DNA of 56,555 bases, counting the filler, from Dirinaria sp. TL-2023a (lineage: Eukaryota), in assembly GCA_051941275.1 (NCBI GenBank). It is 5 parts of 5 records of this genome, joined end to end, with 100 filler letters (N's around TTAATTAATTAA, not from the genome) between each part and the next. Parts side by side here need not be neighbours in the genome. Positions count along the whole stretch, not along the records: positions 22,695 to 33,930 come from JAVEBF010000861.1; 4 more parts are not named here. One strand, written 5' to 3'. The position numbers were made by a program, and so were the translations under genes. Each line of letters begins with the position of its first letter. Position 1 is the stretch's first letter. Shown here piece by piece: positions 2,200-40,396 of the stretch. Below the pieces are notes generated by a model that was not told where the DNA came from, made no database searches, and worked only from the letters and a program-made list of their open reading frames with translations.

Positions 2200-4270
2200 C
2201 TGATCAACTGATCCAGCCGATGGCTCAAGAATCGGCTATGCGGATGAGTACGACTCTAGACCCTAGGACTGGTAAGATATCTGCCTTGAGTGATTTGGCT
2301 CTCTGCCCGTCCCTTTCCTTTTTTTTTTTTTTTTTCTCTACCTACTCCTCGTCAAAGATACCATGATCCTCGAATCTGGTTCTGACGTTGAGATGTTCGC
2401 ATCAATAGCGCTCTCATTAAAACCTTTCCGTTACGAGGTATTTGCATCCACCATATACTTATCTCCTTAGATTTATCGTTATAGGCCACGGATCATTTCG
2501 ACTCCCTCTGTAGCTAGCTCCCTCTGATGGTATATAAGTAGGTTTTCATTATAGCCATTGCTTCTATCATCGCACGAACGATAGCTATCGCTAGGGGCCT
2601 TAAAGAACTTCCCCATATCTGAGAGCTGCACGCCAGACTTGTCATATACTATCGACATCCTAAATTCTCAAATGTTTTGAAACGGGCCTGTATTCGCATG
2701 CGAGCAGGTGGGTTCAAGGTCTCCAAATCATGTGTTGGCACTCTCTTGAGGGGCTTCACGAAACGCTGTCACCATTGGCTAACCCTAATAGACGCTGGCT
2801 GAATAGGGGGAAAACAATGCTCTTTGTTCTCGGAAATATTAGCTGAATTTTGGCTCTCCATATTTAGCCTGCTCCTCGTCGTTCCAGTTACCATTCACGG
2901 TGTTGGGATTATCATTAATAGAGTATCAAACCCTCTCATAACATTATTTTCTGATCAAAAAGAGCTCAGTATGGACTTGTCGCACCATTGACAAAGAAGG
3001 TCTCGCCTTTTACACAGCGAGAGCAAGTGCGTCTTCCATGGTATTTCCGCTTTAGGCCATTTTAAATTAGAAAGGCCTCGTAACCGTGCCCTGTAAGGAC
3101 ATGCAGACTTTTTGGTATTAGTCGAATCAGCTAATCTGTTGGTCTCTTGACTGTCTGTTTAGTTGCGGACGCGAAAAAGGAGTCTCATCTAATCTCTTTC
3201 TTCAACTTCTGCCAGTTCAAACGGTCGATCACCATTAGTCCACTAACTAGGAACTCGATATCGTCTTGATCATGATCACTTGGACCAATGGGGATTCGAG
3301 CCGCGGCTGCTCATTAATGGCAGTCATCCTTCATGCGGAGCCTTCATACTAACGAGCAACGTAACGCACGCTTTGCTCAGCTCTTAAGTACTAAATTTTG
3401 ACTTCTCAAAATGGCGTCTATCGTTCAAGCGTCTATGACCTAAGGCAGGTATTTTGTAAGCTACCTGCCAGCCTCTCCCCATATTGGAGGCTGAAATACT
3501 AAACCGCCCCGCTCTTTGAGAGGTTTAAAACCGTGTCAGACCTCTGGTACCTTAAGATACGAAGTATCTCCTTCGAATAGCATCTTCATCGCTCGAGATC
3601 TAGGCCTTTGCGACCTATGGAGTGGTTGAAAAGCTGAGCCGGAGAAGGAAAAGCCTGTCGGACTGACGATGGAACGATGGATAAGACAGGTGTCCAGATT
3701 GCGAATGGGAAACGAGAACTTTGCATAATACATAATGGATGGACGATGATCGATACAGGCCATGAGGTGTAAACATCCGTAAATTCGCAATCCCTCCAAA
3801 ATCTCTAGTAGCCGACCTATCTTTGACAACCTTATGTGGTGGTGTGTCCTGCAGGTAAACTGTTATCACCGGCTCCTTGGATCATGCATGCGTTGCAATG
3901 TGTTGTGAAGCTCGTAACAGAGTCAAATTAAAGCTATGTGTTGGGGAGTACTGTGATGGACTAACTTTATCTCAAGCAATCAGCACTCGTAGCTTGTTAC
4001 GAGGCTTTATTTCCAAGAATATCCTTTCTTACTTCCGCACAAATCTGCATCTGCTCAAATCGTGCCACAGCCAGTATGGCAATTCTCAATACCAGCATCA
4101 TGTCATACAGCCAGTTTATTGTTATGTACGAATGGGGCACTCTAGCGTCCGTCATTGCAATCGCAGCATTGGAGATTGCCAATACTGGAGCCGTGGGAGA
4201 TATAGATGAGTTGGTGAGGATGATTGTATTCTACCAAGTATACTTGCTGGCCATATTGACTTGGGATTTC
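2200..4270 (+). ncRNA. TER: Candidate telomerase RNA (template + pseudoknot core; both ends approximate)
   Basis: Template CTAACCCTAA at 2779-2788. Colinear helices 2793-2807/3154-3167 and 2838-2860/3113-3135, U-rich loop 2861-2865, inserted stem 2869-3106, and crossing stem 3105-3113/3174-3185 form an H-type pseudoknot. Many further helices run to ~4270. No convincing ORF in 2100-4075. Confidence 0.7.
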
Positions 4271-5547
4271 GCCGTGGAGCCTTTCTACAATGCATTCCTT
4301 TCGCCTGTTTGCTCCGCATTCGTGGACCATCTAACATGCTTGGAAGAGCCCGTGGTCACTCTTCCAGCGATTCAAAAGTTCGCGGAGCGACATGGCCTTC
4401 ATGCGGCGCCAGGCTCAAGATCGCAGGACTCCCACGCAGAGGCATCTGAGGAACAACGCCATAAGAGTACTGGTCGTCAAGCTGGTGATAAGAGTATTAC
4501 ACTGGAGCGAAGGCTCCATCCTTCCCTGTTGTCGGATGACGTGGAGATCAATAAAGACATTGAGTTGAAGGAAGTCTCGCAGCCCTTTCCGGCTCACGAG
4601 CACAGCAAGGTAGAACGGGGCCCTAATTGCTGTCCAGAGTCTCTGAATTTACCAGTCACTGATCATGTATTCAGGAAGAATGTTGCCTTCTATTACGGAA
4701 GCTACCTCTAGAGGCCAGAAGGCTTGTGTATGCGGAGCTACTAATAGCTGGCATAATCGAGAACGCATTTTACCTCGTGTACGACAAAGTTAATACGCTC
4801 GTGTATTCAGAGAAGGATCAGCGCCTCCTCAAGTTCAAAATCGACTCCACAGTACTCAGAACATGCCGTCAGATATACGATGAGGCACTACCCATGCTCT
4901 ACCAGGACAACACTTTCGTATTCAGCGATTCTATCCAAATGTCAGGCTTCCGCGATAAAGGTTTGCCTGAGAAGCCAGGTAAGTCTTTCCTGAGACTGTC
5001 TATGTCCAACTAGCCAGCTTCACCGGGCTAATAAACCTCAGACCCATCCAATTACCTCCTACGAGTTCCTGCATTCAGATTCGCTCCCTGCTCCCAAGGC
5101 CGACTTTCGCTCATTCGAAAGCTGGTTCTCAATCTGACCAACGAAACCGCACAACGTAGCTATCGGCTCGTCTCCGGTCGCTGGGTTCCGACTCGAAGCG
5201 ATATCCAATCCATGTGGACCGAATTTTTCCAGGAAAACCTCTATGAGGATGACAGATACCGCCCGAGAATCCGGTTTCCCTCTCTCACAGACCTTCTGTT
5301 GAACTTCAGCGACTGGAATTTGACTGCTGATGACGCTCTCGTGGTATGTACCTCATGGATCGGATGAGGGTGTTAGTATACATAGCTTATACCCTGGCAG
5401 GTCCGCCCTTTTGTGCAGAGATTGGAGACGGCTGAGAAACTAAATAGGCTTGAGATTAGGGGCGTTTTACATCTCAAGTCGCTCGAGGAGCTGAGAAAGG
5501 GGTTGTTGAAGGAAAATGGCATATTTGTGGTCACTTGTGGACGGTAA
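4076..5547 (+). CDS. DUF7730/F-box-like protein, paralogue 1 (start codon uncertain)
   Basis: Exons 4076-4609, 4675-4978, 5042-5343, 5401-5547 with in-frame GT-AG introns. Motifs LLRKLPLEARRLVYAELL, IDSTVLRTCRQIYDEALPMLYQDNTF, QGRLSLIRKL, FPSLTDLLLNFSDW, RPFV. Confidence 0.75.
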
Positions 5548-6252
5548 TCTATCAGGGCAGGAATGTGGTTAGCTGAATAATGTCAACGCTATATAATGCT
5601 GAAATAGATCTGAAACAGCTTGCATCGCTATAGAAATCAATACAATATTTAGATGGGGTAGCAATAAAAATTCTCCAAGATAGTTCTCGCTAAGCCTTTG
5701 AACTTGGGAGAGAAAACACTCTATTGAATCGAAAGACAAATCAGTAAAGTTAGATCCAATACGATGACATCTATGACTGCTTAAAGTAATGCTGGTAATT
5801 GCTGTGCTCTGAAATCGATGTTTGTTTATAGAAACATCCAAAGATTATCTAAGCGAAGATCAACAGCATAATTTCAAAGAAACAGCATCGTAATCTGTGA
5901 ATCAGACGCGTCGATCTAGCATCAATTTTTCTCGCCACATCCACACATGAGTTTGTGCCACACTCGTCGATGTCAATCTGCGAGACGTTCTCTCTCGACA
6001 TGAGAAGAACAGCTTCTTTATAGAGTCTTTTCATCACTCTGCGATCGAGATTCTCACAGACAACGATTTCGCGTTAGCAGATCAATATCTCGTGTGCGGC
6101 GATTTCGTGTTAACAAGTCAGTATCTCATATCTCGCGACTTGATGTTGACATTACTCTGCAATATCTACACTCACACAGATGTTTGCAAAGCTTTTTGAA
6201 TATATTATGCTGACAGTGCAGCATCTTAGAAGAATCTCTTGAAGAGACGAGA

Positions 6253-8058
6253 ATGAATACGGACAAAAATTCCTCGAGCGGATCGAATCAGAAAGATTTT
6301 CGTCTCTCGAGTGACGATGCTCGACAAACATTCAACAATTCTTCGATAGCGCCGCTACAAGCAGAATCATCTCGCACAAAAATCTCCAATATCCTCAATT
6401 TCCAAATCGTCGAGAATCCCTCCGAAGAAGAAGACGATGATGCACTTGCAGCCAGAGCCGAATCACGACTTAACGAAGTCACGTCGGAAGCGATCAACTT
6501 TGCTCGAGGGATCATTACGAGTCAAGCGCAGATGCTTTCTCAGGAGAACACTTTCAGCGAACAAGCACAGCATACTGCGGTGTTGCCCACTGACTTCAAA
6601 TTCAGTTACGTTGGACCCAGTTACGGTACTACGTTCGAAGCGGAGGCAGGAAATTATGAGAGTTCTCTTGCTTCGCATCAATCTCAGAACGATGCTCCCA
6701 GTGAAGATACACAAGATGGGTCGATGCCTAAGTGTAGCTATATCGAGCGTTGTCCAGGCAAGAGGGCACGGACAGATGGGGAACAGGAACGAATGGAGAA
6801 GAGAGCTGACACCATCAGCAACTCTGAACGCTCAGAGACAGTACCGCAAAACTGTCTAGCTATGTCGGAGATATACGTCAACTACAACTCCACGCCTACA
6901 CAAGCATTAAAATTAGAACATACTTCACTCAAGAAAGGGCACAAGTCCGCATTCTTCGACCTTATAAAAAATAAGAAGCTAGAAGACGTTCCGTACGCCG
7001 AGCTAATTGCTGCGCTGGATGAGCTTAAGAACATCGAAATCAGCCCTTGCCCCTTGTCTAATAGGTCTGAGAGCATCAAAAGTGACGCGTGTCCCTTGAT
7101 CGATACTTCTGAGAATATCGAAAGCGACTCGTGTCCTTTGCCCAACAGGCCAAAGAGCATTGAAGGCGGCACGTCTTCCTCGATCGATAAGCCTAAGAGC
7201 TCGGAAAGTTGTCCGTGCCCCTTATTCGGAAAATGGCCTCTCGAGATCCGAGAACTGCTCTACAAACTGTTGCTGGTTGCCGGCCATATCACGCACCCAG
7301 GACAACTTGTAGAGAACGATGTCACTACCTTCGTCTACAAAGAGCATGAGAAACCATCGAATTGCCTGGGAATAGACTCGACCATTCTTCGTACATGCCG
7401 TCGAATCTACAATGAGGCGCTGCCCATCCTGTACGGCCACAACAATTTTGTGTTCGATAACCCAAGATCCATTGAGGCATTCCGCCAAGAAAGCCTAGTT
7501 GATATGCTCCGTAAGTCGTGTGATCGATATACTTGTTGTGTCGATCAGCAATACTGACAAACCACAACTCTAGACAACGATTTCGGGTTTTCCTTGTCCT
7601 TCGGATTTCAGCCTTGTCCTCATGGAAGGCTGACAATGATACGCAAGATGACCATATTCCTTACCGATGAGCAAGGTCTCAGCCTTCAGCGAGCGCACGT
7701 TCGACCAGTCATTCGTGAGTGGGTAATTCGTCTTTGGCAACACTTTTTGCAGCAAAGTCGATTTAGAAGAGGGGCATTTACTCAGCCCATCGCGGAGTTC
7801 CCAGCTTTAGAAGATCTGACTTTGGACTTTTCCGTGTGGCGGCTTGCTGCTGACGAAGTAGTGGTGGTACGTTGAGACAATCCAGATGCATCCAAATATG
7901 CTGATCTTAATTTACAGCATCGCCCGTTCGTTGAAAGATTCAGTACGCCGAATGGGTTAAGTCGACTCGAGATCAGGGGAATTCAACACCAGCAAACTCT
8001 CGACGCTCTCCGTCGAGGGCTTCTCAGAAACGGTGGAAGATTCGTCATAAGTTTGTAG
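6253..8058 (+). CDS. DUF7730/F-box-like protein, paralogue 2
   Basis: Exons 6253-7510, 7574-7866, 7918-8058. Motifs CPLFGKWPLEIRELLYKLLL, IDSTILRTCRRIYNEALPILYGHNNF, HGRLTMIRKM, FPALEDLTLDFSVW, RPFVERF. N-terminal 14-aa repeats of the type CPLxxRxESIxSD. Confidence 0.8.
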
Positions 8059-8686
8059 ACGAATGTGGTATGGAAAAGCCAGAAAGAAAAAGCCTTAAGG
8101 GATAAGGACTTCGAAAAGTTAGCGTCAAATTTCGTGAAAGATGGACTGCTAGATATCAAAATGCTCTGAGCCTCTAGATTGCATTACGCCGTCTGGACTC
8201 GATCGATTATTCGCTCTCATTAGATTCGAAAGTAGCAAAAGAGCGATTACGAAGGAAAGTTTCTACCCACGTTCTACCCGTTTGCTGAATCATCCAACGA
8301 CTGCTTGATTTTCCCAAGAGCTCCTGAGAACCCTGCAACCAGCAAGTGATAGAGAGAATTCTCCTCACAACCAATGTAAAACCCAAAAGTGAACGGGCAA
8401 AACCACATTCACCAGCCTTCAAGCCCAGCCAAGTGACACCTCTATGAGATCCAATAAGTCCATTAGCACTAATCAACACCTAAGCACTAGAAATGATAGC
8501 CAAGCCAGTGTGAAGTCATAAGTGTGGAAAATCGCAAGAGTTGAGACCATAACACTCTGAATCTGGGACCCAGGTCTAACACCTGCAGCACCGATTCTTC
8601 GGGTATATCAGGCTTTCCCCTTTCAATGAACTCCCTTCCACCTTTCCAAGCTCTGGCAAACTGATATACGGAAACTCTAAGTCGTC

Positions 8687-11231
8687 ATGGGGAACACTGC
8701 AACGCGCCCCATATCGGCCAAGGAGCCTCCTGCAGAGGCAGACAACAAAAATGAACAAGTACCAGCTCCAGAGCCGCCGCAGAACCTGTCAGAACGTGAC
8801 TTGAGAGTTACCGTGGCTGACGATGATGAGGATGATGCTGCTGCTTCTCCCCCTGAGCAGGTTATATCTTTCGATGAAGAGCTTTCCAGGGTATTAGACT
8901 CCTTATCTTTGAGCAAAGATATTTCGAGCGACAACCAAGAGATCCTCGACAATGCTGGTTTACGAAAACCCGAGCCCAGCAATCACAAGCCCATTCGAGC
9001 ATTCAAGCCCGTAACCCCTTCTGACACAAAAGAGAACCAGTCGCCGCATCGTATCCCCTTTCCGCGCCGCAACTGGTACACTCCTGGCACAACCGAGAAC
9101 CCCGAACGGCGCTACGTACTTCCTCGATTACAGCAGAATGCCGAGAAAGCGAAAGCTACTGCATCCCATCGCACCAAATGGCCAATGCCAGCTCCTGGCA
9201 GAGCTTACGGGGCCGATGAGGGAGACTCGAAGAAGACGAGAATGGATCTACCACCCCGACGCCCAGACGAGACCTGGGACCGATTCATAGCCAGAGTGAA
9301 AGAGGTTTACTTGCAAGATCCGCATCCGCGGTATACGAATGTTCCTATCCAACGTCCTGGCGAGACCACGCAGCAATGGATCGACCGGGTGGTTAAGCTA
9401 TACACGCAGGACCGAGACCATGGGAGCACAGGGACTGAAAAGCGTGTAGAGGTTCCAGTCAATGGGGCTAATCAAGCAAGCGGTACAGGCATTGATAAAA
9501 AGCGGGCTCAGACGCTCATCGACGAGGCTACCGAGCGATTCAAGTATTTGGACACGGCTTTTGGACAGCGCACGAGTACAACGCCAAAGACCGAGGTGAC
9601 TGCATCCATGGAGCGGTTAGTGGCAGGAACTCCTCCCATGAAGCGACCCCATCACCAGTTCGCATTCTGGGAGTCGTGCACGGCCGATAATGTGGATGCG
9701 AATCTGGCTGCTAGGCTCAAGGATCCTGCCCATATCAAGGTCGGCTTGATGGATCTTATGCAAGAAGAGCGGAACTCCGATACTAGCAATTCGAAGCGGG
9801 TGAAGTCGGGTCCTACTCCAAAACCGAGAAGAAAACCTGGTCCAGTGCGTGGTTTGGGTATTTTTGACCCGAAGACCAAGCTTGGTTTGACTGTCGCTAA
9901 TAGCCAGCCATTGTCTGCCCCTCGTGATCTAGGAGATGGTGGTAGAGAAGTCGCTGAGGAAACGAGTGAAGTCAAAGAAGTTACCGCTAACGAAAACAAA
10001 GCCAAAGGCGGTTCAACAGAGACCAAGGACGATAAAGCCAAGAAGAGCAAAACAAAGGAAGTCACAGCCGGGGAGGGTAAAACCAAGAACGACAAAGCCA
10101 GGAAGAGTAAGAAGAGCAAAGCCCAGGAAGGCACAGCCAAGCAAGCTGAAGTCAAAGGTGGTGCAACCGGAGACGGCAAACCCAAGGATGACTTAGCGAA
10201 GAAGAGCAAAGCCCAGGAAGATACCATCAAAACCAGTCTAGGGAAAGGAACTACGGACAAACTCGTACCTCATGAGCCCACTTCTTCCCAAAAGCAATTC
10301 CAATGCCCGCTGCTCGAATACCTCCCCGTCGAAATCCGACTTCTGATCTATAAGCATCTGCTCGTGGCCGATAAAGTGATTCGAGGCGGCGAACTGGTCC
10401 AAGACAAGCTGATCTCCCTCATCATCCCCGACCAGCGGCCTCCAATGTTAGATCTCGGTATCGATTCCACGATTCTTCGCACCTGTCGTCAGATTTATCG
10501 CGAAGCTCTACCGATACTGTACAAAGACAATACATTCGGGTTTTCTCAAGTTAAGATGATCAAAGCGTTCAAGAAAGAGGGTTTGGTGCCGGCGAGAAGT
10601 AAGTAGTATGCCCTCATCCTTCCAAATCCCTTCTCTTTCCCAAAAAAAAAAAAAAAAAGGGAGCAAAGTATTCTAACACCTCACCAGCAACCGACAACTG
10701 CAACTCAATAGAATGGATCATGAAGAGCATCTCGGAATTCAACTTTACACCCACACCCCAAGGGCGCCTAAGCCTGGTGCGCAAACTCCACCTCCGATTC
10801 ACGGGCCAACCGCGACCAGCCACAGGCCACGGCCAGAGTAGAAGCTACTACGAACCGAACCAGTGGGCAAAGTTCCTGCAGGAGAGCCGCTACGAGGAAA
10901 AAGCCAAGTACACCTACTTCCCCTCCCTAACGCACCTGACGCTCGATTTCTCGGAGTGGAAAATGACGAAGCATGAGGGTGTTGCTGTAAGTTTCCCCCT
11001 CCCCCCTTCCCACACTTTTCTTTTCCCTTTTTTTTTTTTTAACTAGTTGCTGATATGGAGAAATAGCTCCGTCCCTTCGTAGAGAAATTCAAAGTCCCCC
11101 ACGGCTTGCAGAGCTTGACACTTTTTGGGTTTTACCATATGGGATCGAGCGATGCGTTGAAGGAAGGCCTGGTGGCGAAGGATGGACAGATGAGGCTTTA
11201 TAGGAAGGATTGTCCTCTCCCGACGTTCTGA
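8687..11231 (+). CDS. DUF7730/F-box-like protein, paralogue 3, with long disordered Lys-rich N-terminus
   Basis: Exons 8687-10598, 10688-10986, 11067-11231. Motifs CPLLEYLPVEIRLLIYKHLL, IDSTILRTCRQIYREALPILYKDNTF, QGRLSLVRKL, FPSLTHLTLDFSEW, RPFVEKF. Confidence 0.85.
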
Positions 11232-11250: not shown

Positions 11251-11350
11251 NNNNNNNNNNNNNNNNNNNNNNNNNNNNNNNNNNNNNNNNNNNNTTAATT
11301 AATTAANNNNNNNNNNNNNNNNNNNNNNNNNNNNNNNNNNNNNNNNNNNN
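11251..11350. other. Artificial contig-joining linker
   Basis: N44-TTAATTAATTAA-N44, with stop codons in all six frames. Confidence 0.98.
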
Positions 11351-15878: not shown

Positions 15879-18800
15879 CGAAGCGACTCTTTCACCAGCT
15901 AAGATTGAGCACTGTGTCGAAAGTGTATACAAATGCAGTCACGAGATGAAGAAGGAAAGAGGCAAAAGCCTTGTTCGACCGTAGGATTCTTGGCGCCAAG
16001 AGCGGCAAAGTATTTCCGCTCCGATCGAGGCGGACGCCAAGTGCACCGCCTTCGCTAACGAGGCGAAGATGTGACGTGTTGGTGGTGATTTGACTTTCAT
16101 GCAACCTCAAGATCTAATTACATTATTAGCTTTGACCTGTCTCTAATCTCTTGTATCAACTATGTAATGCTGAAGCAGTATGGCAAGCGTTGATGACATC
16201 AACGGGCCGAGGCTTTCAAAGCAGTAACACCGAGAAATTTTATTAGGGTTAGGGTTGTTGCAAAGAAGCTTCCCACCACCTCCCAAATACCTCCTCAAAA
16301 ATGCCTTCCATCACTGTCAACACAGATTAGTGATTGCTTTATCTCACTGGCTCATATACATCATTCAAAATCGTTTATAAAGATTTTGTATTGGGCAGTG
16401 ACCTGGTTTATACTCATCTAACTGTCGAGGAGATCTATATGTCTTATGTTACGAAACGACGTCGAGAATGCGACAATATGTGAACCAGTAATTGCAGCAG
16501 TGATCATGCACCAGGTGGACACTTTATTCAAAGAACATCATCATAATGTGTACATTCCCGGCGATTGTCGATGACGAGAATTTTTACAATCCGAACTGGC
16601 AACCCTGACTGCAAAACTCGGCATTGAGGGGATCTTGGCAGTCATCGGGTAGGTGACCTTGAGAGGAAGCTTAAGACCGCGCGATCCTTCAAGTCTCATT
16701 GTAGAGCAATGCGCAGAAGCCTGAATCTCTTGAAGTGTAGGCTTAAGGAGAATCGCTGAACTCTTTAGGGTAGCAACAACGGCGGCTACAGGTCAATCTC
16801 AAGTTCGGAAGAGGTTGAAAAAGAGATATTAGCCTCTCCGTTTGAGCCACAAGCTAGGTACCTAAAGAACGTGCTGCATGGCAACACCATCTGCACCTCT
16901 TTTCCGGCACCCTCAGAATTGACGATTATATCCTATCGCTTCCTCTGTCACAAAGGGCGTGCTAAGACATTTGCCTTTAATAGCCACTATCAGATATATT
17001 CTCGCTATTTGAGATATCAATTTGCCAAAGAAGCGAAGCTTAAAATCGCTATTTTGCTTTTTTCATAATTCGATACATCTGCTATTCGCGAAAAGGCACC
17101 TTAGGTCTTCATTGTTCCTCGATCGAGATGAAGATGCCGTGTGGTACCCAGATACGTTGCAAAGAAGATGGCTATCGATCTCTGCTTACCCAATGCCCAT
17201 GGAGCTTCGATGTTGAGAATTTTTCAGGAGCTGATATTGGTGCCACGATTTACGGTGTTTTTTCTCTTCTACGTCAAAGCCCGCCAGAGAAGCCTTTGTC
17301 AGCGGTTTATCGTGAAGTCGTCTCAGTGTTTGTTAGGTCCTTTCGGTTTCGTCATTCACGAACTAAATCATCAGCGGCTCCGATTTGGGACATGCTCCCA
17401 CGAGATCGGCGACCTGCAACTCTGCATTCGCCCTTTCTGGTCGAGCTGCCCTCTCTGTGCAGCTCTGAGCCTAGAGCATGTTTCAGGTTGCACATCGCAA
17501 TGCTTTTCAAAAGCATAACCCAATGCGGTGTCTTTCCCCACCAGGGGCGGTCATACATGGACGAGCATGTTGGCTTCTCATGCGGCACGTGTGTCGTTAC
17601 GGGCGACCTCTATTATCATTGTGTTCTCTCACAACCTGCTTTGTGATGCTGATGTGGCGGGAGTCAACTTTGTCTTGCTAGCGGGTTTTAGCAAGGTAAA
17701 TATGGATGGTACGATATCCATACCGCGCGGACAACCACTGCACTATGATTGCTGTTTTTCTCTTTCGGCAATATCGCATGGCGCGTCAGACCGCGAAAAG
17801 AGATCAAACTTGTTGACTGTCACCGAAGAGATCAGCCATCCTTCACCTATATTTAGTCAAGATATCGGTAGCATGCTTGAAGATACGCATTCTGGTGTGG
17901 AGCTACGATAGTTACCATGATCGCATAGTTTTGATTTACCCCGAAAGCATACATAGCTTATGGAAGTCAGTCGCAGCACTTTATGCAATTGACTGTGACT
18001 CGGGGATACTCGCGGTTCATTACTTTTGCAAAGCTTCAAACACGCGAGCTTAGTATCAGCATCACGAAGTTTTCTTATATTGGTCTCGCTGCGGTTTTTT
18101 TTTCTATTATCCTCGGCGGATGCCCATTCGCTGCGCTTTAGCGCTTTACAGTGCTTTCGAAAGAGGAATTAGGAAATTCGGAAATTCGAGGCTGCCAAAA
18201 GATACCCTCGAGCAGCGGATGCATTGTTCGAGTCTCATCAAGTAAAGAAGCGAGCAGCAGCATCAAAACCAACTACTGGCGGAACTTTTGCGCTGTTTGT
18301 CAATGGCGAGGCTGTGAATGCTGTATAATCCGGCTATGGCTTCGATCTCGGCCTCGGTGTCTTCCTTTTCGCTCTAGGACTCATGGCCGGGGATTATTTC
18401 ATGACAGGCAAGTATACGATTGGTGGAGCTGATTCGCGTCTCCCCAATACATTTCGCCTTGCTGAAGGTCTATGCAACACAGGGTGTTCGAGATCGATGG
18501 CAGCATCATCCGGAAGAATCAATTTCTGCAACACTGCCAATGCTCCCTCGCAAAGATGAAATGAGTACGTGAATAAGCCAAAGGCACAGGGCAGTCTATC
18601 CATTTTTCAAACGAACGCCTTAAACACCAGGTTCTGGGAGGATAAGTCCTTCAAAACCGAGCCAGACCTTTCTACTAGCGTATTCCGGTTTGCTGTATGC
18701 CACGCGGAACGGGCTTTTGTTTATACTGGCGTGGGGAATGGTACTATCAGTAAACTTGGTCGAAACGGCGCTGTTCCTTTTACTCTCGCGTGAGCTTTTC

Positions 18801-22594: not shown

Positions 22595-22694
22595 NNNNNN
22601 NNNNNNNNNNNNNNNNNNNNNNNNNNNNNNNNNNNNNNTTAATTAATTAANNNNNNNNNNNNNNNNNNNNNNNNNNNNNNNNNNNNNNNNNNNN
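22595..22694. other. Artificial contig-joining linker
   Basis: N44-TTAATTAATTAA-N44. Confidence 0.98.
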
Positions 22695-22739
22695 AAGAGT
22701 CCGTCGAGGAAGAGTCGAAAATGACACAGAGAAAGCGAA

Positions 22740-23845
22740 GTCAAAAGGTTCGAGTACCGTCGTGAACTGGTTTAGCAGGTGTTCCGACGTCGAATTTGAA
22801 TACCTTTCCTCCATTCTTCGTGTCCGACTTCAAAACCCACCATCCCTCTTCATCTGTACGCCATCGGCAGCATGATTAGGCAACGGCTCAAATTATAAGA
22901 AGGATATGCTGGGAAGAGTGGAGGACTGTTGTGATCTGGTACAGCAGGTGATCCGACTCAACCAAGAACCACTCCCACATTGACACATACACCATCGGCA
23001 ACATGAGCAGGTCACAGCTCAGCCATGAATAAGAAGAGCTAGAGGGAGTGAAGAACAATCGAGATCTGGCATCGCAGGTAATACGATTATAACTTAGACC
23101 CACTGTCACCTTGACATCCTCTGAAGCATCTTTCTTTTCGACACTACATTATCGACAAAACGAGCATCTCAAAGAAGAGACACGGACCCATTCTCGAATC
23201 TTATACTTCATCGATGAGCAAAGCAGTTCGAGCAGGTCACAGCTCCACCATCAAATCATAGATAAGAAGAAGAACGTATGCTGGGAACAGTGAAAGACAA
23301 TTATGATCTGGCATAACAGATGATTCGATTATAACTCAGAACCACTCCCACGTTAGCATTCTCTGGAGCATCTTCTTATTCGACATTGATTACCGACAAA
23401 ACGAGCACCCCAAAGGAGAGGCATGAACTCGTTCTCGAATCTTACATTCCACCAATGAGCAAATCACAGTTCGAGCAGATCACAGCTCAATTATGAAGAA
23501 GAGTGGATAAAAAGCATACATGCTGAAAGCAGTGAAGGACAGTCGTGATCTGACATAGCAAGTGATCCGACTATAACCCAGGACCACTCCCAGATGAACG
23601 TCCTATGAAGTAGTTTTCTACTGCATTTACGACTACACGAGCACCCCAAAGGAGTCATACTCGTCCTTGATACATTAAGAAGAAGGGTCAGAACGATTCG
23701 AAGTACTGTCGTGAACTAGCATCGTACATACAAATGATCCGACGTTGAACTTGAACGCATCTCCCTCATCACTATTCGATCAGAGGACTGCTTTGCACCT
23801 GTGCCGATCCATCATCTACAGCTAGAGCAGGTCACAGCTCAGCAA
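22740..23845. repeat. Degenerate tandem repeat array, units of ~225-245 bp with sub-repeats
   Basis: Anchor GAGCAG(G/A)TCACAGCTC at 23005, 23230, 23473 and 23825. Recurring blocks GATCTGGCAT..TGATCCGACT..ACCACTCCCA and ACGAGCACCCCAAAGGAG. Confidence 0.85.
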
Positions 23846-26135
23846 TCCATCACAGAAAAATATACTGGGGAGATAGGGGTACACTTGCATTGACAATAGT
23901 CCCACACGAATACTGAACCACAGCTCCTAAGTGCGTAGGATATTCTAAGAAGAACCTTTACATTTCAGCATTTAAGTGCAGACAAATCGAGCAACCCAAT
24001 GGAGGCAAAGCTTGAATATGATTGACGAAGTATGAACGCAATCGAGGCAATCGCGATGCTTCTCAGGGATATCATCGCAAGTGTTCCAAGCCTTGATCTG
24101 AGTTATGCCAGTGGAGTATTATCAGTCGAAGTCTCACCTTCTCGCACTAGATTCTCGACAATTTCAGGATCTCAAGAAGGTCAGTTCTCAATGACGAAAG
24201 ATCGAAGCGATCGAAAATATACTCCTCAGTCTTCATCAAATAGGATCCGATAACTGGCCTTAATCATGTCACTGAAGGATACTCAATCACGATCTTCCGT
24301 GCCTGCAATACATCATCGACAATATCAGCAACCTAAACAGCTTATGCTCAGACGGCTCCGATGAGGCTGTACGCGAAGAAGCTCACAACCGCATGCATTC
24401 CCGAACTTGCACAATCGCCGCCTCTAGAGATCCGGGAGAACCAGAGATGATTTCTGGTCTTGGAGCGTCTGTGGTCGATGTCCTTGGTCTCAGATTTTGA
24501 AGCTACACCGATATATAAGAATATTTGATCAAGGTGTTGAGTCCTAACCTTACATTATCGACAATAGTAGCACCTCAAGAGGCAAAGCTCTATTACCGTC
24601 GCAATTCTAAGAAATTGAAATTCAGATGCAGTCGCAATGTCGTGTGCGTTGCTAATTTAGACGATCGCAGTTGGTCGGCTAGGCTAGAGTACCATAATCA
24701 AGCCCCTTCTGCCTGTCACACCGAAGGGAGCAGATGCAACGCAACCCACAGAAGATCACAGGTGTAGTACCATCTCGGTACGCAGCCCAACTAGTAGCCC
24801 TTGTCCTGTATATCAACGGACGAAACCTAAGTTATTGAAAGGCCGACAGCGCCTGCTCTGCATCGACAGTTGCTGCGATGTACCACCAAACAAATCAGCC
24901 ATGTACCTGACGGCGCAGAGAATACAGGTTGCCTTACCGTAACTTTTATCTAACTGCTTGATGTGCTATATAGCATTGAAAGAATTTACAAAGGCCAACG
25001 AACACAAACGGCAATCGTACCGACGCTTGGCCAAGCCTGCTTAAGTTAAATCCGCCGCATCACTCGCCTTGATGAGCACTGGATCCTAGACGAGAGCGTG
25101 CTTAAATGGTAGATTAAAGTAGTTAGTATAGGGAACAGCACAAACAAAGAATCTTGCTGCTGCCCAACCTTGAAAGCAACAAATCTGTAATCAAACCACA
25201 ATAGAGAACGGTGAGTGAGAAGGCCTAGAAAACGAAGAAAGGATGATACTGAGAAGAACAGCAGAGCCAGCCCGAGTCAACAACCTAGATCTGTCGAACG
25301 ACCAACTTAAGCCTAGCGTTCAGATGTCACCTACAAGCCGCTCTCGCATAGCCGAAAAGGAGTAGGAAAGATAGACCGTCAGAAAGCACATCAAGCAATG
25401 AATACAATCAAAGAACGGCTCTCAAGGATGGGACAGGAGAGAGCACTGAGAGAACGATATTAGAACTTCCACATCAATGGTCCAGACATGAAATGCCAAA
25501 TGCCAAAGGGGAAAGGGTACGAGCAAGTTCGACCTGGAGCTTGCGAAGCTTCACTCCAAACTTTCCTAAGCGAAGTAAGAGGCAAGAAAAAATGGCACAA
25601 CCACCCACAAAGAAGAAAAAAAAAACATACAGAAGAAGAGAAAGGACTCATAAAAGCGCCAGACAACAAATAAGTGCGGGAGCGGAGGAGGACCAAATCT
25701 GGACTAAGAAAAAAAGTCTGTCACTGGAGACACGAGGGCACGAAAGCATTGGTTCAAGGCCCCGAGAATACTGGAGTTGATTTACACAACTCATACAAGG
25801 AGAACATCAACTCCATTTAATAAATCTCCGGCAAAGGAAAGATGCTCGCAATGATTAACCAAAAAGAAAAAAAAAAAAACCAACCAACCATAGAAAGAGA
25901 ACAACGGTATCTTTACTAGCGAACGAGGCCTATGCACACCAACCACGCCTTCAGACGTATAGTCCACTCATAGGAGGAAGTAAAGGGGAAAAGGACAAGG
26001 GCCCCAGGGTGTGCCGGGTCGGGAAGATAAAAATCCAGTAGCCGGAGCATGATACCGGGACCAGCTGCCAATATTCGGTAATTCAACTCTTCATTTCAAA
26101 GTCCTGAGCAAATCTTCGACAAGCTATGAGATAGG

Positions 26136-30571: not shown

Positions 30572-31258
30572 ATGTCTTCCCTTCCAACCCGCATTGTGGG
30601 CGGTATTTTAGTCCCAGATACGCCTTTGATTACCAAAGCTCTTGATTATGCTCGTGCCCACCTATCCGACATGGCATATAATCACGTCGTCCGCTCTTGG
30701 TTATTCGGTTTCGCTATCGCTTCCAAGGTCCCTTCTTTTGCCGATCGTGATCTCGAGGTTCACTCCATAGCGGCCATCCTGCACGACATGGGCTGGGATA
30801 GTACAGGCAGGCTTGTAAGCTCGGACAAGCGCTTCGAAGTTGACGGTGCCAACGTCGCCCGTGAATTTCTCATCAAAGAAGGTGTATCTGAGGAGTGGGA
30901 GAAGCATCGGTTGCAACTGGTATGGGATGCCATTGCACTACACACCACTCCTTCCATCGCCTCGCACAAAGAGGACGAAGTCCAGATGATAACTTACGGC
31001 ATCTTGACCGACTTCGGAGGGCCGGATGTGTCCTTTGAGAAGCTCCTGACCTGGGAGGAGTGGGAAGGGGTGGTGAAAGAGTATCCGAGATTGGGTTTGA
31101 AGGACGGCGTAAAGGATATCTTGTGCGGGCTCTGCAGAAGCAAACCCGAGACAACGTATGACAATTTCGTGGCAGGGTATGGGGAGAAATATGTGGAGGG
31201 ATATTCGCTGGAGGGAAAGAAGCAGGTTGATGCGATCGAGGCAATGACGCTGCCCTGA
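30572..31258 (+). CDS. HD-domain metal-dependent hydrolase (cyanamide hydratase-like family)
   Basis: Intronless 228 aa; NHVVRSWLF, AILHDMG, RFEVDGANVAREF, LVWDAIALHT, KPETTYDNF. Confidence 0.88.
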   Translation: MSSLPTRIVGGILVPDTPLITKALDYARAHLSDMAYNHVVRSWLFGFAIASKVPSFADRDLEVHSIAAILHDMGWDSTGRLVSSDKRFEVDGANVAREFLIKEGVSEEWEKHRLQLVWDAIALHTTPSIASHKEDEVQMITYGILTDFGGPDVSFEKLLTWEEWEGVVKEYPRLGLKDGVKDILCGLCRSKPETTYDNFVAGYGEKYVEGYSLEGKKQVDAIEAMTLP

Positions 31259-31926: not shown

Positions 31927-33559
31927 CTCAGGCGCTTTCTTCAAAAGAAAGACGATGGAAGTCAGGACGGAGGTCTGGCAGTCGGAGAGATCAAGTGATG
32001 GCTCGGAGGGATCAACAGTGCCTCATGCATGATATGTATCACGACGTGCTACATTATTGTTTTCGTACATAGATGAAATGCAAGCCCCTCATTGAGGTAT
32101 GGATGTGTGCAGATAGAGATGGACTAAAATGCCTCGGAAGTTTTATTTGCGAGCCGGTTGGTTACGGGCCGCGCGTGCCGGTTCTTGGCATGTGCAGTTG
32201 GTGTCGAGGGTGTCCGAGAGTCAGGGTCGTTAATTCGTTATCGCCGAGTTTTCATTATTGATCCTTTGTTGACTTTTGGTAGGCAATAATATCTCTGTCC
32301 ACTTGGGACTCCATCATCATCCTCATCGAGTTCGCAACAACGGGTCATGTACAGTTATCATCCGTAACGTAGGGAAATGACAGTATCATGAAGCACCCAT
32401 GCCTCTAAATCCTAACAAGGTGTCATCGCCATGACTTGCAGTATCGATGCACAATGCACGGCCTCTGCAGTAGACAACCTGCGGTCCCCGCTTCCAATTT
32501 GATCCGACATTTGACAGCAACCACGATAACTCGGCGATTAGTGAGGCAACCTCGTAAGCGGAGCCCGTTGCCCACAGTACGGAGGACGTAGAAATACTAA
32601 CCTCCTCCATAGCTTGCCTTGGCGGCTTTGTAGGATTTCTGCAGGCGCCGAAGTTTGTCCAATACCGCATCCTTCGAGATTCTCACTCCGCTCCTCGAGG
32701 TTTGTTAGTTTCCTTATGGTTACCTTAGCCATCTCGTTATTCGGTTTTCCTCGGGCGTCGGGTGATCGGCTGCATCTCAATCAAGTTAGACCCAATGGTA
32801 GGCTTGGCATATCCGCCTAGTAAGCACGCAGCATTGTACAGTAATGTACAGGAATAAACAGAGACATAGCGTCGCGTTGATCACTTGTTGCGATGGAGCT
32901 CAATTGGGGATCCGTTACTCCTCCTCAGAAGGGCAAACTGTGAGTCGCCCAACGGTTTGGTAGCACTTTGCTCTCAACTGGATTTTGCCGCCAAGCTAGC
33001 CGTCATTACATGATGGTACAAGATGTCAGTTATCAGCAAGCCATAAAACCTAGCACACAGACTGCAAGGAAGGCGCATTTACAGCTGCTAGCCAAGAACG
33101 CTCGTCCATGAGAAGCACCTAAACCTGATATTCTTACAGCGATTGGCATTCTCCTCGGAGCAGCCCTCGTTCTCGCAATTTCCGCCAGTGTAAAGTGATC
33201 TTTTAATTAGTGGTAGAGAGAGGTCCTAGAGCTATGAGAGCAATGACCAATGCTACAACTTTCATCGTCCCAGAGCCAACCCGGAATTCCATGGGCTCGG
33301 TATCCATCGTCGTGTCTATTAAGAAGGGCAATAACCACCTACCTAATGTTGTTGGGGATGGTTTGACCAAGTAGGCTTAGCGCGGTTCACTAGAGGCTTG
33401 GCACCCACACACCGGGTACTTAGCACCTTTCCTTCTCACCTGCTTCATACTTTCTTCCAGTAGTCTCTACACAATATATACTATGCACCCTACCTTGCTA
33501 CTTGCACCTTATTCTAGATTGCACCCTCATAATCTTAACACGAATGAAGTTTTTGAACG

Positions 33560-33930
33560 AAGTGGTCTTTCAGACAGTCATAATAAAGAGAAATTGCAGA
33601 GAATCGAGCTGCGACGACTCTTTTATCGATTTTTTTCGCGAATTGAAGAATTGCTACGAGATATTGCAGTGCTGATCTTGACATATTTCTGCGCGATTCG
33701 TCTTCGTTTTTTACTTATTGATCTCTTGTATTCGTCGTTGAGCTATTTCGTCTTTTCTCTTTTTTTTCGATCTTCAACAACTTGCATCTCTTTGACAGCG
33801 TCTGTTCATATGCTGATTTCAAATAGTAAGTCGCTCGCGAGAGAGGCTGAAAGAGTGAATTTTCAGAACATCGATAAACAGACTCATTTACGAGATGTTA
33901 AATCTAGACTCTACGAAGTTCAGAAAACTC
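33560..33930. mobile_element. Heavily mutated repeat/TE remnant at contig end
   Basis: AT-rich tract almost devoid of CC and GG dinucleotides, rich in TCGA/GA/TC, running into the gap. Element family not identifiable. Confidence 0.45.
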
Positions 33931-34030
33931 NNNNNNNNNNNNNNNNNNNNNNNNNNNNNNNNNNNNNNNNNNNNTTAATTAATTAANNNNNNNNNNNNNN
34001 NNNNNNNNNNNNNNNNNNNNNNNNNNNNNN
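33931..34030. other. Artificial contig-joining linker
   Basis: N44-TTAATTAATTAA-N44. Confidence 0.98.
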
Positions 34031-34389
34031 CTATTTGGCTCCGAGCGCTCAAGTAGACTAACATTCGAGACCCTTGATCGACTGGCTCGACTGGCTCGAC
34101 GTGACTCCGATGTCTGACTCTCCTTCAGTAGTTCCTGAATCTGTTCCTTGCAATTGACAACCGAGGTCTCAATTGAATTTCGTTCCTCCACTTGAAAGGT
34201 GCGACTTGACATGGATCTTTCGAGAGATTGAGATGTTTCCATGAGGTCTTCAAGCCTCTCAGTGATACTACGGAGCTCAGAGTCCTGATGCGTGTATGAG
34301 TTGTAAATGTCAAACTGCGATTGTGTTGCTTGAATCTCTAGTGAGATCACGCCCGCCACGCTTCCCGCAATGAAGAGTGGATCTGCCAT
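34031..34389 (-). CDS. HeLo-like/fungal NLR (NACHT-type) N-terminal domain protein, 3'-partial, possibly degenerate
   Basis: MADPLFIAGSVAGVISLEIQATQS...ITERLEDL...IETSVVNCKEQIQEL is typical of fungal NACHT/ankyrin NLR N-termini; truncated at the contig end. Confidence 0.65.
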
Positions 34390-35251
34390 AGGAGATCTCG
34401 ACGCAAAACCATGTGACCGTGGTTGATATATCGGATGTACGGATCAAGATAGTCAAGGCAATGTTGATTATCTTGTCCGTAAGGCTCTCCACTGTTATGA
34501 TACTTCCTGCTCTTCTCCACCGTCAACTCTTCTAGTCACCGTCGAAGACGAAGAATGGTCTGATCAAAAAATTCTTGCCGTAGTATGGTTATTTTCTTTT
34601 CTTGATCCAGAAGAACGGCTCGGTCTTAGGTTGCTACTGCCACTGGAAAGATTTATTGGCATGATACAGAACTCAGCTCCTCTTAGGCTGACTGCGACTC
34701 AGACGGTATGTGGCTAGATTCGCAAAGGCCGGAAGTAACCCCATGACATGTCGCTTCATAGGGATGTCTCAATTTGAGTGATGGGTGTTACTCAGAAGCA
34801 CGCTCGCGTGCAGGGAGGATGGTGGCGGACTCCGGAATCTAGCAGTCGCAGTCAGATGTGCAGAGAGCGACAACGCGGTCTATCATATGCTGCTGGTGAT
34901 GAAATAGGCGTATGTAGACAATATGAATAGGCCGCCGCTAGGCGCACACCATCATGCAGATTTGCTTGTTCCAACTTCGCTTGCAGCTTGTTAGCAATAA
35001 GGTATGTTATTAAACAGCTTGCACAAGTCATGGGCCTTGGTATCTAGCCGTGCCCTGGGAAATTCATCGAATGCTCCATTGATTCTTATTCCACTAAAGC
35101 AAAGCAAAGCTACATGAGGGCGAGCCTCTGCAAAATCCAGTCCCGCCCATTGCAATGGCATCTGTAAAAACTGTCAGGATCTCGAGGTTGTATCTCGGAC
35201 CCTGAAATAATCCGTCGAGCATCTTTATCGTTAACGACATGAAGGCATCCC

Positions 35252-36337
35252 TCATCTGTTCGCCACGCATTTCTTCGTTGTCAACAACTTTCGAAACTCG
35301 ATCTCGAATTTCTCTTGCAGCTTTTTCTTTTCTATCTGCTTCCCCGCCTTTTCATAGATCTTTTTCAAATGCTCACACTGCGTGTCGCCAAGCTTGACGA
35401 TCTCAACGACCGCATCTGATTGTTTTTTCGCTCGACTCACAGCTTTAAGCAATTGATGTGCATCGTCGTAGAACTCCTGTGCAGCCTTCTCTGCAGTTGC
35501 ACCACAATAGAACTCGCAATCAAGGCGCACGCGATTCAGATTAACAGCGCTAGCAGCGACGACAGTCTTTGTACTCATGAAACGCCGATAATGGAGAAGA
35601 TTTTTCACATGTGACTCAAGACTTCATTCGATGATCGTCATTTGTTTGAGAGCAGCGCAGTTCTTGAGACCAATCGTAGCGCAAAATTCATACAGCGCTC
35701 TGATATCGAACATGACGAAGTTATTGCCGCCATAGAGAACTGCGGAGACTTCGAGATTGATCTGACGGTTTAAAACGAGGATTTTGGGGAATAGACGGAG
35801 CCGCCGACCCTTATCTATCTTTGACGATGGAGATGTGGGCGCAGTGAAAGGAATTGTATCCATGGTAGTGTTCCATCCCATATTTGAATTGAGTTGTCGA
35901 TGGTTTTGATGTGGTTTTATAAATATACTCATAACCCGAATCTTTAAGAGCTCGCATGGACTCGTGAACAAGCGGTATCTCGCCAGAGCTGGAGGTGAGA
36001 AGAAGGGTATAGATCTTATTCCTCAACTCTGCTGGAAGTTTCTCGAAAGGGAAAATCTCGTTTCGTGGACGTCGTCCATCTTGTCTGACTTTGGGTTTCT
36101 GAAAAAGATCGGTCAGATCCGTATATGAGACAATTCTATGGTTTGGCGGAGAAGCCAACTTACCTTAGATGCAGACGCCTCTTGAACTTTTGAAATAACC
36201 TTGTAGTCATCGGAATCCGGTTTGGATTTGTAGTCAATATTCTGGATCTTGTCGCCATCGGAATCCTTCTTAGAGTGAGAGATTTCTGTACATTTGCGTT
36301 TAGGATTTGTGCGTCTATTCGCTGTGATTTGGGCCAT
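35252..36337 (-). pseudogene. F-box-like/DUF7730-related pseudogene
   Basis: Exon 1 36337-36164, intron 36163-36099. Motifs FPFEKLPAELRNKIY and ILVLNRQINLEVSAVLYGGNNF. Frameshift from a 4-bp duplication at 35812-35819 and an in-frame TGA at 35624-35626. Confidence 0.8.
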
Positions 36338-36910
36338 TCTGAGATGCTTGACGCCGAAATCGTGTTTGTGCGAAAGCGTGCATAAAAAAAAGTGCAACGA
36401 GTTGTGCGAGCTTCGATGATAACAAACAGTCGCGTTTATCGTGTGTGTGATCGCGTCTCCTTTAGTGTTGAACGAACATATCAGTGTCAAACAGTGCATA
36501 CGAACTTTGTTCTTTTCACCCAAATCAGCATACAGTGGTATTGTGCTTGTTATTCTTCACATTCAGATATCTACACATCAAGCTCAGCTCACCTAAGAAA
36601 TAGTTGTACAAAGGCATTGTTGATCGTCACATCACGAACTCAGATATCACAATCAATAACAACAGAATGCTGTTGATATCACAACAAGATCTTTCTGCCT
36701 GCCTCAAAAATACTATAAGAAAGACTCACTTCTCAATGTCGTTTCCGTATTCATTTCATAATCAAGCCCTGCCAGAACGATCCAACATTCAACTGAATGC
36801 AAAACCATCGAAATCAACGCCAAATTCGCCTATCAGCGATCAGATACACCTTCTCAGAAACCTACGTCTCATCCATCGAATCCTTAATAAACCGGAAACT
36901 GACTCTGGCC

Positions 36911-37879: not shown

Positions 37880-40396
37880 GCTTCCGATGAACGCTCGAAA
37901 AATTGAGTAGCGTGTTGAGAGTTGTAGTGACGAAGAGAAGGGCGGAGAGTAATTAATATTGGGCGGCATTGGGAAAGGAGAGAGGCGATGGATATCATGA
38001 GGGGCAGGGTTCCTGAGAAAAGTAATGTCTAATAACAGTGTGGGTCCAAAAAAAGAGAAGCCCAAAAACGTATGCTTGCGAACCTGAGATCATATCTGAC
38101 TTTCCACAATCTCCTCTTCGTCACTTGCTCTCATTCTTCACTTGATTTCTGTCTTATTCGTCCTTGGTTGTAGAATTGATTGGTGAACTGAAGGCAGCCG
38201 TACTCCTTCATAGCTAATGAAGTGGTTGTGGGTAGTGAATTGGCGTCAGGAGTTCTGATAAATTCTGACACAGTGGACAATCTTGCAGTGAGGAAGGATT
38301 CGATTGCTATCCTCCAAGCCCATCCTCACTTGCGAATGTCGACATTATCCCCTCGGTGTGTTTAGATGGGTGTTTTTACGCCCCTCATCGACATGCCATA
38401 ATCAGCCTTCATCAGGTAGGTATCCATTGTTTGATCATCCGGATTGCGATTCCTCATACCATGACATAGACCAAATAAATCGGATCGCGCCGAAAGAATC
38501 TCACTGCATATAAGGTAGTACTCGTATAGATTGTTTCAAGATACGAGGATTGTGCGAGCTGTATCTGCCGCTCTGTGACGGAAGGTCGCGGTATTCGCCA
38601 TGAAACGTCTCGAATCCTCTGACCTGAAGCTACATAACCGTCGATCCTGGGGAGGTAGGGTAAAACACAGTAGTCCCGATGCATTGTAGGAGCTTTGCAA
38701 TACATGAGGGGTCTCATAACTGTTAAAGCCTTGAAAGTCGATACAAACGTGAGCAGTGACAAATGCCAGGCTCTGTGCGCCAGGTCAATGATCAAGTCAA
38801 AAGGGGAGTGGCAATATTAACGACAGTGTATCCGTTGGCATGCAGTCGCAATGATACGTAGACCAGGTCATTCGACGAACGTCCGACGCTGGTAAGAGAG
38901 GATTTCCCATTAGCGATTCTGTGAAAGCCGGCTCAAGCAAGGCAGACACCACGCATAGAGAAGTACATCAAGCGATGCTTATACTCTGCATCAAGGTCTG
39001 ACACCTCGGTATGTATATAAGATCAGAAAGCGGCGATGATTTGCGTGGAATGATGATACAAGAGCCGTGTTTGGAATTGCAGGTGAATTGCACACGGGGA
39101 ACCGTATGACATTGCGAAGACGCTCGAGAATAGAGACTTTTGGATAATGCATAGAGATGCGTGAAAGGCTGATGAAAGCCATAGATAATCAGAGACAGCG
39201 AACCCCAGTGCAACGTTCCAAAGTTGAGTGCGATAGACTTGTATCGGGAAATCGCAAAGATCTTCTCTGATAAGACGGTAATAACAGTGGGCAGGATGTG
39301 CCCAAGTTATCGGAAATGGACTGGTGTCCGCTTTTTTCGCTGTTTTCGAGGGTCAACGCACAAAGGATGACTCAAGCGGCTCGGACTAGCAGGATGCAAT
39401 GCCTTATCGTTCATCAAAACGCGAAAATCATGGTGCAACACGTAGCGCCAGCAAGGCATAGCAATTGCTGGCAGCCAAGTCCTGCAACGCCCAGAAGGTG
39501 GGGACGGAAACGGGTCTTGGAGGGCGATGGGTTTCTATGAGTGGATGATCAGATGCAGAGCGATAACAGGGGTTCTAAGGATACGATATGCGTACCACAA
39601 AATTGGCAACTATTATGTTCGCCAACCACCCGCTTTTTTCGCTTAATTGGACCCCCTTTCAAGGCCTTCACTTACTCCGTACATTGTTCTTGTGACGCTA
39701 TCCGTAATTGCAGAAGCACGCCAGTAATCTGTCTTGATGGCCTTGTTATAAAATAAACGAAATTTATCAAAGTCGTTTTGCTTCTTGCTTGAGTTCGCAA
39801 CGAGCTCGATCAAATGAAAAGCAGAAGATGATGTAAAGAGTCGCAAGCTTGAGATGAGAAACTGCCTTGTGCACATGCAAATATCTGAAGTTCCTACGCA
39901 TCCCCCTATCGAGGAAAGGTTAACGAATAAAATGAGGCTGAGCGAAGGCGCGAGACAGCGAAAGGGCGACGTAGCAGCTTCTGTAATTTGTGAGGGAGAT
40001 GACGCATAAACCTGTATCAGGTTAGTTGCCTGGCCGGAAGCAGCCAGGCATTTAAGCTGCAGGCACTGCCATAGGTGCTGGATTTTTTTCGTAGGCAGAG
40101 GTAGATCACTCGTATTCACCCGGAGACTGCTGATCCTTGCAGTCATTTTGGACATGTGAAAATCGGCGCAACTCCTGCGTAGTGAGCCAGATCATCTCAC
40201 GCTTGACGCACGAGCCGCCAGGGTACTGCATCCCATTTGACAGAAACGAAAAGCATGCCAAGTGTGTCGCGCTGACCTTCACTATCAAATCGGATCGGTA
40301 AAGAGTGATCTCCCAACAGAGGACACCTTGCTACCCCAATCCAGAAAATCCCACCTTCTATAGACGTACAATTATAGATCGGGCACCCATTCCTGC

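Follow-up and report, generated by a model that had tools for sequence, protein, structure and literature searches.

The window analysed here (the whole stretch of DNA, 56,555 nt in length) contains bounded islands that display an excess of C>T and G>A changes on both strands. The mutation rate in these islands depends on the 3′ neighbour of the cytosine, and CC becomes TC, i.e. the first C is mutated. It is probable (roughly 0.6) that this pattern reflects a variant of fungal repeat-induced point mutation (RIP) with a changed target, CpC. The original prediction had proposed a CpC-specific, repeat-targeted cytosine mutator. A local CpC>TpC mutator is well supported in the window, where its context, its polarity, the involvement of both strands, its patchiness and one broken gene were observed, whereas repeat targeting was seen only in a second fungus, together with spared ends of the targeted transposon, local spread and variation among alleles.

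The window consists of five linker-joined contigs arranged by length (11,250, 11,244, 11,236, 11,215 and 11,210 bases), and features on either side of a linker are unrelated (Table 1). Two proteins of the window are assigned in the protein database to contigs of 11,236 and 11,250 bases. The gene content (Dcp1, GH72, a sugar transporter, three DUF7730 paralogues, and HD, IBR and dynamin-like genes) is of the filamentous ascomycete type. The best named relatives of the encoded proteins share 58–67% identity with them and represent several classes, with many lichen-forming fungi among these relatives; those of Dcp1 are 58–60% identical and of mixed classes. An Rfam search of the whole window gave no matches.

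Depletion was expressed as CC/(CC+TC), with GG counted on the other strand, and zones were assigned using a three-state model (background, partly depleted, near-saturated). The background is not depleted in CC (observed/expected ratio of 0.93 for the whole window), and most of the intergenic DNA retains this dinucleotide, with a value of 0.46 compared with 0.04–0.14 in the islands. Low outliers for CC/(CC+TC) were found in 13 of 547 subwindows of 300 nt, and for CA/(CA+TA) in none of the 547. In the case of CG/(CG+TG), six 300-nt subwindows were low outliers (at 401–800, 8301–8700, 16101–16400 and 36501–36800).

Table 1. Coordinates of the features described in the text (window positions, or positions within the metagenome loci L024 and L006).
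Feature	Position	Strand	Remarks
Linkers	11251-11350, 22595-22694, 33931-34030, 45246-45345		each 44 N + 12-base stop linker + 44 N
Three tandem DUF7730 paralogues	4663-11046	+	N-terminal parts unrelated; I1 lies between the first two
Island I1, near-saturated	5708..6383	.	11 CC/GG per 141 sites; between two DUF7730 paralogues, into 5′ part of the second
Tail of I1, partly depleted	to 7134		
Decayed tandem array	22705..24015	+	full 242-bp units ~22996-23234, 23235-23477, 23478-23700
Half units of the array	22723-22865 and 22866-22995		fainter pieces 23700-23781, 23816-24015
Partly CC/GG-depleted zone	22982..24640	.	array + 900 nt beyond; CC/(CC+TC) 0.29 (118/406) vs background 0.46
Island I2, near-saturated	33533..33930	.	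contig end; contains 281-nt CC/GG-free gap 33564-33845
Partly depleted zone with PigL_N (fungal N-terminal helical domain) gene fragment	34041..34622	-	contig start; Pfam E=6.5e-07
Broken gene, fungal family, weak 2EXR-like motif	35252..36556	-	142 other homologues, best ~36% identical
Island I3	35365-35727		within the broken gene
Island I4, near-saturated	36360..36698	.	7/52 sites; 5′ side of the broken gene
pogo-type transposon	L024:2622-4525		Pfam DDE_1 E=5.8e-12; 1.9 kb, 80-bp identical terminal inverted repeats
CC/GG-free stretch, 564 nt	L006:8778-9342		CpA kept; common to six alleles 96-99.9% identical

Four islands were distinguished. Pooled and compared with the background, they show a strong reduction of CC+GG (0.18x) and an increase of TC (1.28x) with CT unchanged (0.98x), while CA (1.08x) and CG (1.16x) are retained and TA is slightly lowered (0.84x); their GC content drops only to 0.34–0.40. 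The strand-wise counts are in agreement (CC 5/TC 56 and GG 3/GA 48 in I1; CC/TC 0/37 and GG/GA 2/36 in I2), and the DNA between I3 and I4 is partly depleted. The longest interval free of CC and GG was measured at 281 nt; when the window was simulated with a third-order Markov model (60 runs), the maximum was 117 nt. These results bear out several earlier statements, namely that the same bias occurs at 5850–6250, 33570–33840, 35250–35720 and 36340–36720 (where it is much stronger than in the tandem array flagged initially), that one of these stretches lacks CC and GG over about 270 nt, and that CpA and CpG sites are largely kept.

The context of the changes was analysed by applying 14 different mutation rules to the background sequence and comparing trinucleotide likelihoods. 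The best rule was C>T with a 3′ C (a gain of 208 log units, with a fitted rate of 0.8), followed by a 5′ C (123), context-free change (34) and a 5′ C or T (27), while a 5′ T (−0.8) and CpA (−5) gave no gain. As the islands had been selected for low CC, only the comparison of the 3′ C and 5′ C rules is unaffected by selection, and the 3′ C rule was superior in each of the four islands.

A second copy of any island was absent from the 56-kb window, and it is their position (at a contig end, in the gap between paralogues, in a dead gene) which suggests that the islands may be repeats or repeat flanks. Six-frame scans of I1 and I2 gave no Pfam match. On the + strand of I2 one frame is open for 122 codons and contains a single Gly codon and neither Pro nor Trp (the best Atlas score for the open + frame, 0.80, was uninformative). 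On the same strand, 183 codons without a stop (33381–33930) lead through the CC/GG-free island and reach the end of the contig. As an open frame across this island arose in 22 of 5000 simulations, this may be the old coding frame, for which no family was found. An assembly artefact is unlikely, given that the pattern affects both strands, has definite boundaries and is found again in six independent records from the second fungus.

Two of the islands are associated with a broken gene, whose family was assembled by a HMMER search (143 matches); a word-based homologue search with this gene scored none of 776 candidates. Among the 190 codons tested there is one in-frame stop, a TGA, at a column where 83% of the family members have Trp. 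Of 12 positions with a conserved Gly, Pro or Trp, only 2 have kept it, whereas the other residues have been retained in 53 of 89 cases (p=0.011). The intact HD gene, used as a control, shows no such selective loss (27/32 vs 131/160). A tally of codon contexts failed to separate the two genes (CpC in 7/16 cases for the broken gene and 7/13 for the control, in which 4 of the 7 fall in three codons common to close relatives). Since CC>TC creates stop codons only from Trp, genes wrecked in this manner retain extended reading frames and find their way into protein databases, as has happened with the broken gene, which is listed as the predicted protein P0121. Within the HD gene, three adjoining residues (154–156, at 31034–31042) depart from the Pro-Gly-Gly of the family, mostly by CpC-type changes. 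Recent leakage of the mutator into this gene was considered and dropped, as the changed residues are common to relatives at 78–89% identity, and any such event must be old.

The stretch that had first drawn attention is a tandem array that has, at 23047–23610, a period of 242, 2.3 copies and 75% matches, with no match in Pfam (six-frame scan) or Rfam. All 13 sequence strings quoted from it were located (22917–23585). Identity between the copies, in an array spanning >800 bp, is now 73–79% and was formerly higher. The best pair, u2/u3, was compared over the portion that aligns best, where we counted 143 identical columns, 29 transitions (13 CpC, 4 CpA, 6 CpG and 6 CpT) and 9 transversions. Considering sites with an unchanged 3′ neighbour, CpC differed in 14 of 16 cases and other C in 15 of 70 (p=1.3e-6); with shared T counted, the values are 14/37 and 15/119 (p=0.0013). 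The excess of CpC changes was significant in two of the six copy pairs (u2/u3 and u2/u4) and not significant in the other four (p=0.07 for u3/u4; p>=0.39 for the three u1 pairs). The claim that the copies differ mainly by CpC>TpC thus needs to be narrowed: such changes are enriched, not dominant, making up 13 of the 38 differences even in u2/u3.

For the array taken alone, the pattern might be attributed to plain decay of an old tandem repeat, the quoted examples having been selected among many kinds of difference. This would fit the four non-significant pairs, the 79 transversions (against 100 transitions, a ratio of 1.27, in all copies) and the lack of net direction when polarity was assigned by majority rule over all copies (49 C>T+G>A vs 51 T>C+A>G), a test that is conservative because sites changed in several copies are undercounted. 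However, the u2/u3 excess persists with shared T counted; relative to the column majority, the share of letters with a C>T/G>A change is 15/61 at CpC and 33/313 in other contexts (2.3x, p=0.006); the entire 1.66-kb zone is poor in CC; and decay is silent on the islands. We regard it as highly improbable. The array may rather be an old short repeat that received a partial dose of the mutator in addition to decaying in the usual way. No clear CpC excess was seen in four short duplicates of a different nature within the window, the counts being small (37070/37295, 42818/43218 and three DUF7730 pairs were compared, with too few sites).

As controls we used 37 loci from metagenomes, each surrounding a relative of the HD gene of the window; 11 of these loci were removed as near-duplicates before window counting, among them L024 (JAABUS010000079.1), which was analysed afterwards. 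Of the 3063 windows in the remaining loci, 281 were poor in CpA and 8 in CC, so that classical RIP is common among the control loci whereas CpC islands are seldom encountered. L006 (JAABUZ0100000199.1) accounts for five of the eight CC-poor windows; low-CC windows of L026 and L019 were set aside, as the DNA is very AT-rich and TA-rich. The HD protein of the second fungus is 57% identical to that of the window and falls in a separate clade of the HD tree, which makes it a different organism from that of the window.

In L024, the mutator has struck a complete pogo-type transposon that is missing from the four other alleles covering the site (all that L007 contains is a short remnant whose ends are the same). 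The body of the element is saturated and its flanks are normal. The number of CC+GG per 100 nt is 0–1 across positions 2901–4200 and 6–15 at the ends, which are spared over 150–250 nt each. Context fitting gave gains of 335 for a 3′ C, 250 for a 5′ C and 19 for CpA. The 13 internal stops are 11 TGA and 2 TAA, and codons 96–500 (405 codons) contain no Gly, Pro or Trp together with 20 CAA/CAG. In the second fungus, the evidence that repeated DNA is targeted comes from this transposon.

The CC/GG-free stretch of L006 provided information on more recent activity. Within 300 nt of this island, the six alleles vary at 22 of 77 CpC sites and 5 of 191 other C (p=2.5e-9, a value that overstates independence, as the alleles form three haplotype classes and some columns lie beside indels); elsewhere in these alleles the corresponding values are 90/2225 (4.0%) and 226/6975 (3.2%; p=0.07). 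The excess is approximately eightfold within 200 nt of the island (21/63 vs 4/126) and near background farther out (17/440 vs 22/1385 at 300–2000 nt). No CpC excess was detected in four other allele sets (p=0.28–0.56). Inside the island, the remaining allele variation is enriched at CpG (12/40 sites), a possible second signature of methylation. These data show that in the second fungus the CpC mutator strikes a transposon, spares its ends, leaks over a short distance and has been active since the alleles diverged. Spread into adjoining single-copy DNA was observed in the flanks of the second fungus, and the window has partly depleted tails beside I1 and between I3 and I4.

In the mechanism we favour, a C5 cytosine-methyltransferase-like enzyme, putatively of the RID or DIM-2 type, would be directed to repeated DNA, probably by homology sensing and at a premeiotic stage, and would change the leading C of CpC into T. 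Successive rounds acting on both strands would deprive the repeat body of its CC and GG, largely sparing CpA, and mutation would spread approximately 200 nt into flanking single-copy DNA. In coding sequences Trp would become TGA, Pro would become Ser and Gly would become Asp or Glu, with Gln codons left, so that reading frames would be destroyed while the TAA/TAG stops and the low GC that mark classical RIP would not appear. The strongest evidence of repeat targeting comes from the second fungus, an organism distinct from that of the window.

A different course of events can be envisaged, in which DIM-2 or another methyltransferase methylates heterochromatic CpC, and the methylated base decays to T during vegetative growth, without repeat pairing or a sexual cycle. 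Such a mitotic mutator has a precedent in Dim2 of Zymoseptoria, where, in the available text, CC is the second most methylated CHH context (PMC8016269); it would account for the graded edges and for a struck gene and flanks with no visible second copy, and the CpG variation inside the L006 island hints at 5-methylcytosine. On the other hand, over 98% of the mutations in Zymoseptoria are reported at CA (PMC8016269), and the spared ends of the L024 element would suit homology-dependent action equally well or better. We consider this reading, the main rival of the one we favour, unlikely. Still less credit can be given to a genome-wide CpC>TpC bias that becomes visible only under relaxed selection, without repeat targeting. 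The old CpC-type amino acid changes of the intact HD gene and the slight CpC surplus in L006 alleles far from the island (4.0% vs 3.2%, as well as the counts at 300–2000 nt) are in its favour, but the retention of CC in most intergenic DNA of the window, the confinement of the eightfold allele excess to 200 nt, the four allele sets lacking any excess, and a transposon saturated throughout between normal flanks make it very unlikely.

APOBEC3G-type cytidine deaminases and UV damage at dipyrimidines both attack CC, the target being set by the 5′ neighbour, which results in CC>CT or TC>TT. The loss of CC and GG is common to these agents and the islands, and the 5′ C model also gains likelihood, through the removal of CC. 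However, they change the second C, whereas in the islands it is the first; CT is flat and TC is increased, each of the four islands favours the 3′ C model, and the loss of Pro, Trp and Gly with TGA stops matches CC>TC. An origin of this kind is largely refuted by polarity and exceedingly improbable, with a deaminase of a new 3′-C preference being conceivable. The reading we prefer is the CpC-directed variant of RIP, which can be compared with the systems described so far.

Like RIP of Neurospora and other Pezizomycotina, the process described here involves C>T changes on both strands at a rate governed by the 3′ neighbour, saturated cores, spread into flanks and inactivation of transposons in place; it differs in that CpC is the target, CpA is kept, TpA/ApT is low and the CpA preference is absent. 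In N. crassa the preference is CpA>CpT>CpG>CpC, with CpC least favoured, according to the text available (PMC5496416). RID is described as acting on repeats and DIM-2 on adjoining single-copy DNA (10.1101/344036), and Neurospora RIP is stated to need a repeat of more than ~400 bp and 80% identity (PMC2621366); set against these limits, the array has a unit of 242 bp, 73–79% identity and a total length of >800 bp, and the L024 element is 1.9 kb. The Dim2 mutator of Zymoseptoria tritici is alike in being a methyltransferase-linked source of C>T changes in repeats with one favoured dinucleotide, and unlike in that its target, in the sections available, is CA rather than CC; according to that paper, data on the enzyme activity of RID did not exist at the time (PMC8016269).

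RIP-like signatures other than CpA likewise show that the 3′ context differs among fungi: CpT has been noted in Magnaporthe, Botrytis and Sclerotinia, and CpG in Tuber, Microbotryum and Aspergillus, in a survey in which CpA, CpT and CpG signatures appear and the term CpC is absent from the main text as available (PMC4352252). The CpC>TpT double changes of Monilinia are presented as a by-product of CpA RIP, not as CpC-first mutation (PMC8959702, available parts). In a survey of 1,239 fungal genomes, the repeat-enriched k-mers are all AT-rich and the term CpC is unused in the accessible text (PMC12543289). CpC as the leading target is unreported in the available portions of PMC8016269, 10.1101/344036, PMC8959702, PMC5381539, PMC5737583, PMC5555474, PMC4943192, PMC11412873 and PMC5602860, and a full-text literature search, whose coverage mostly leaves out subscription papers, e.g. 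Clutterbuck 2011, found no CpC-dominant RIP. Judged by its sequence traces, the mutator appears to work like RIP while failing to show the CpA preference that marks the canonical form, and would be a CpC-dominant variant new to the literature we found.

These features have consequences for detection. In the four islands TpA/ApT is 0.36–0.62 and (CpA+TpG)/(ApC+GpT) 1.16–1.52, and a second calculation gave 0.47–0.60 and 1.2–2.2, respectively; both indices read negative for RIP, as anticipated in the original prediction. Its broader statement that standard indices miss the pattern requires a reservation, since RIPCAL lists CpC>TpC among four possible changes and defines a CpC index, in the text available (PMC2621366), and alignment-based tools of this kind would therefore detect it. 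The transition/transversion ratio of the array falls under the threshold of 2 given for Amselem 2015 in the accessible part of that paper (PMC4352252). Two studies of lichen genomes, in their available text, rely on GC content or on large RIP-affected regions for scoring RIP (PMC12542154, 10.1101/2025.11.25.690456), and surveys that use TpA/ApT, the substrate index or low GC, those of lichens included, would score such regions as untouched.

The control loci also include probable relatives of the CpC fungus with RIP of the CpA type. The HD gene of L005 (JAABUY010000051.1) and L019 (JAABUM010000007.1) shows 86% DNA identity with its L006 counterpart, to which it is sister in the HD tree; their flanks are non-syntenic with those of L006, and the relation is one of HD similarity and tree only. 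Kilobases of classical CpA RIP, with CC untouched, are present in both (L005:4800–9600 and L019:1–9000), and the context fit applied to the L005 island, by the same method as for the CpC islands, returned CpA. At L020:9250–9635 there is a small element bounded by terminal inverted repeats, the AT-rich core of which has a CpA-type profile; the L020 and L024 records carry the same prefix.

As the CpC preference is the reverse of that of Neurospora, the CpA relatives and the allele-variable public contigs make the determinant of specificity testable. We tentatively suggest, as a possibility short of an even chance, that the target specificity of RIP is switchable, with at least two fungal lineages running a CpC-first mutator, one of them close to pure-CpA-RIP fungi; CpA and CpC systems may then act on different elements in one genome. 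If this is true, a comparison of RID and DIM-2 between relatives would map the specificity of RIP, and some share of the fungi scored RIP-negative by the usual indices would be defended by the CpC variant.

Several minor features of the window were also recorded. Short patches free of or poor in CC/GG occur at 39759–39858 (0/20 sites) and at 44272–44400 (1/26 sites), the latter in the 5′ part of the IBR-domain gene, and the dynamin-like, DUF7605 gene shows partial depletion at 50109–50374 and 51286–51707. A 162-nt internal duplication (37070–37231/37295–37456, 73%) lies in an acidic ORF of 360 codons, rich in Ser and Thr, for which Pfam gave no match. Finally, a 108-nt inverted repeat (42818–42925/43218–43325, 80% complementary, with a spacing of 292 nt) is overlapped by a partly CC-poor segment at 43142–43369.
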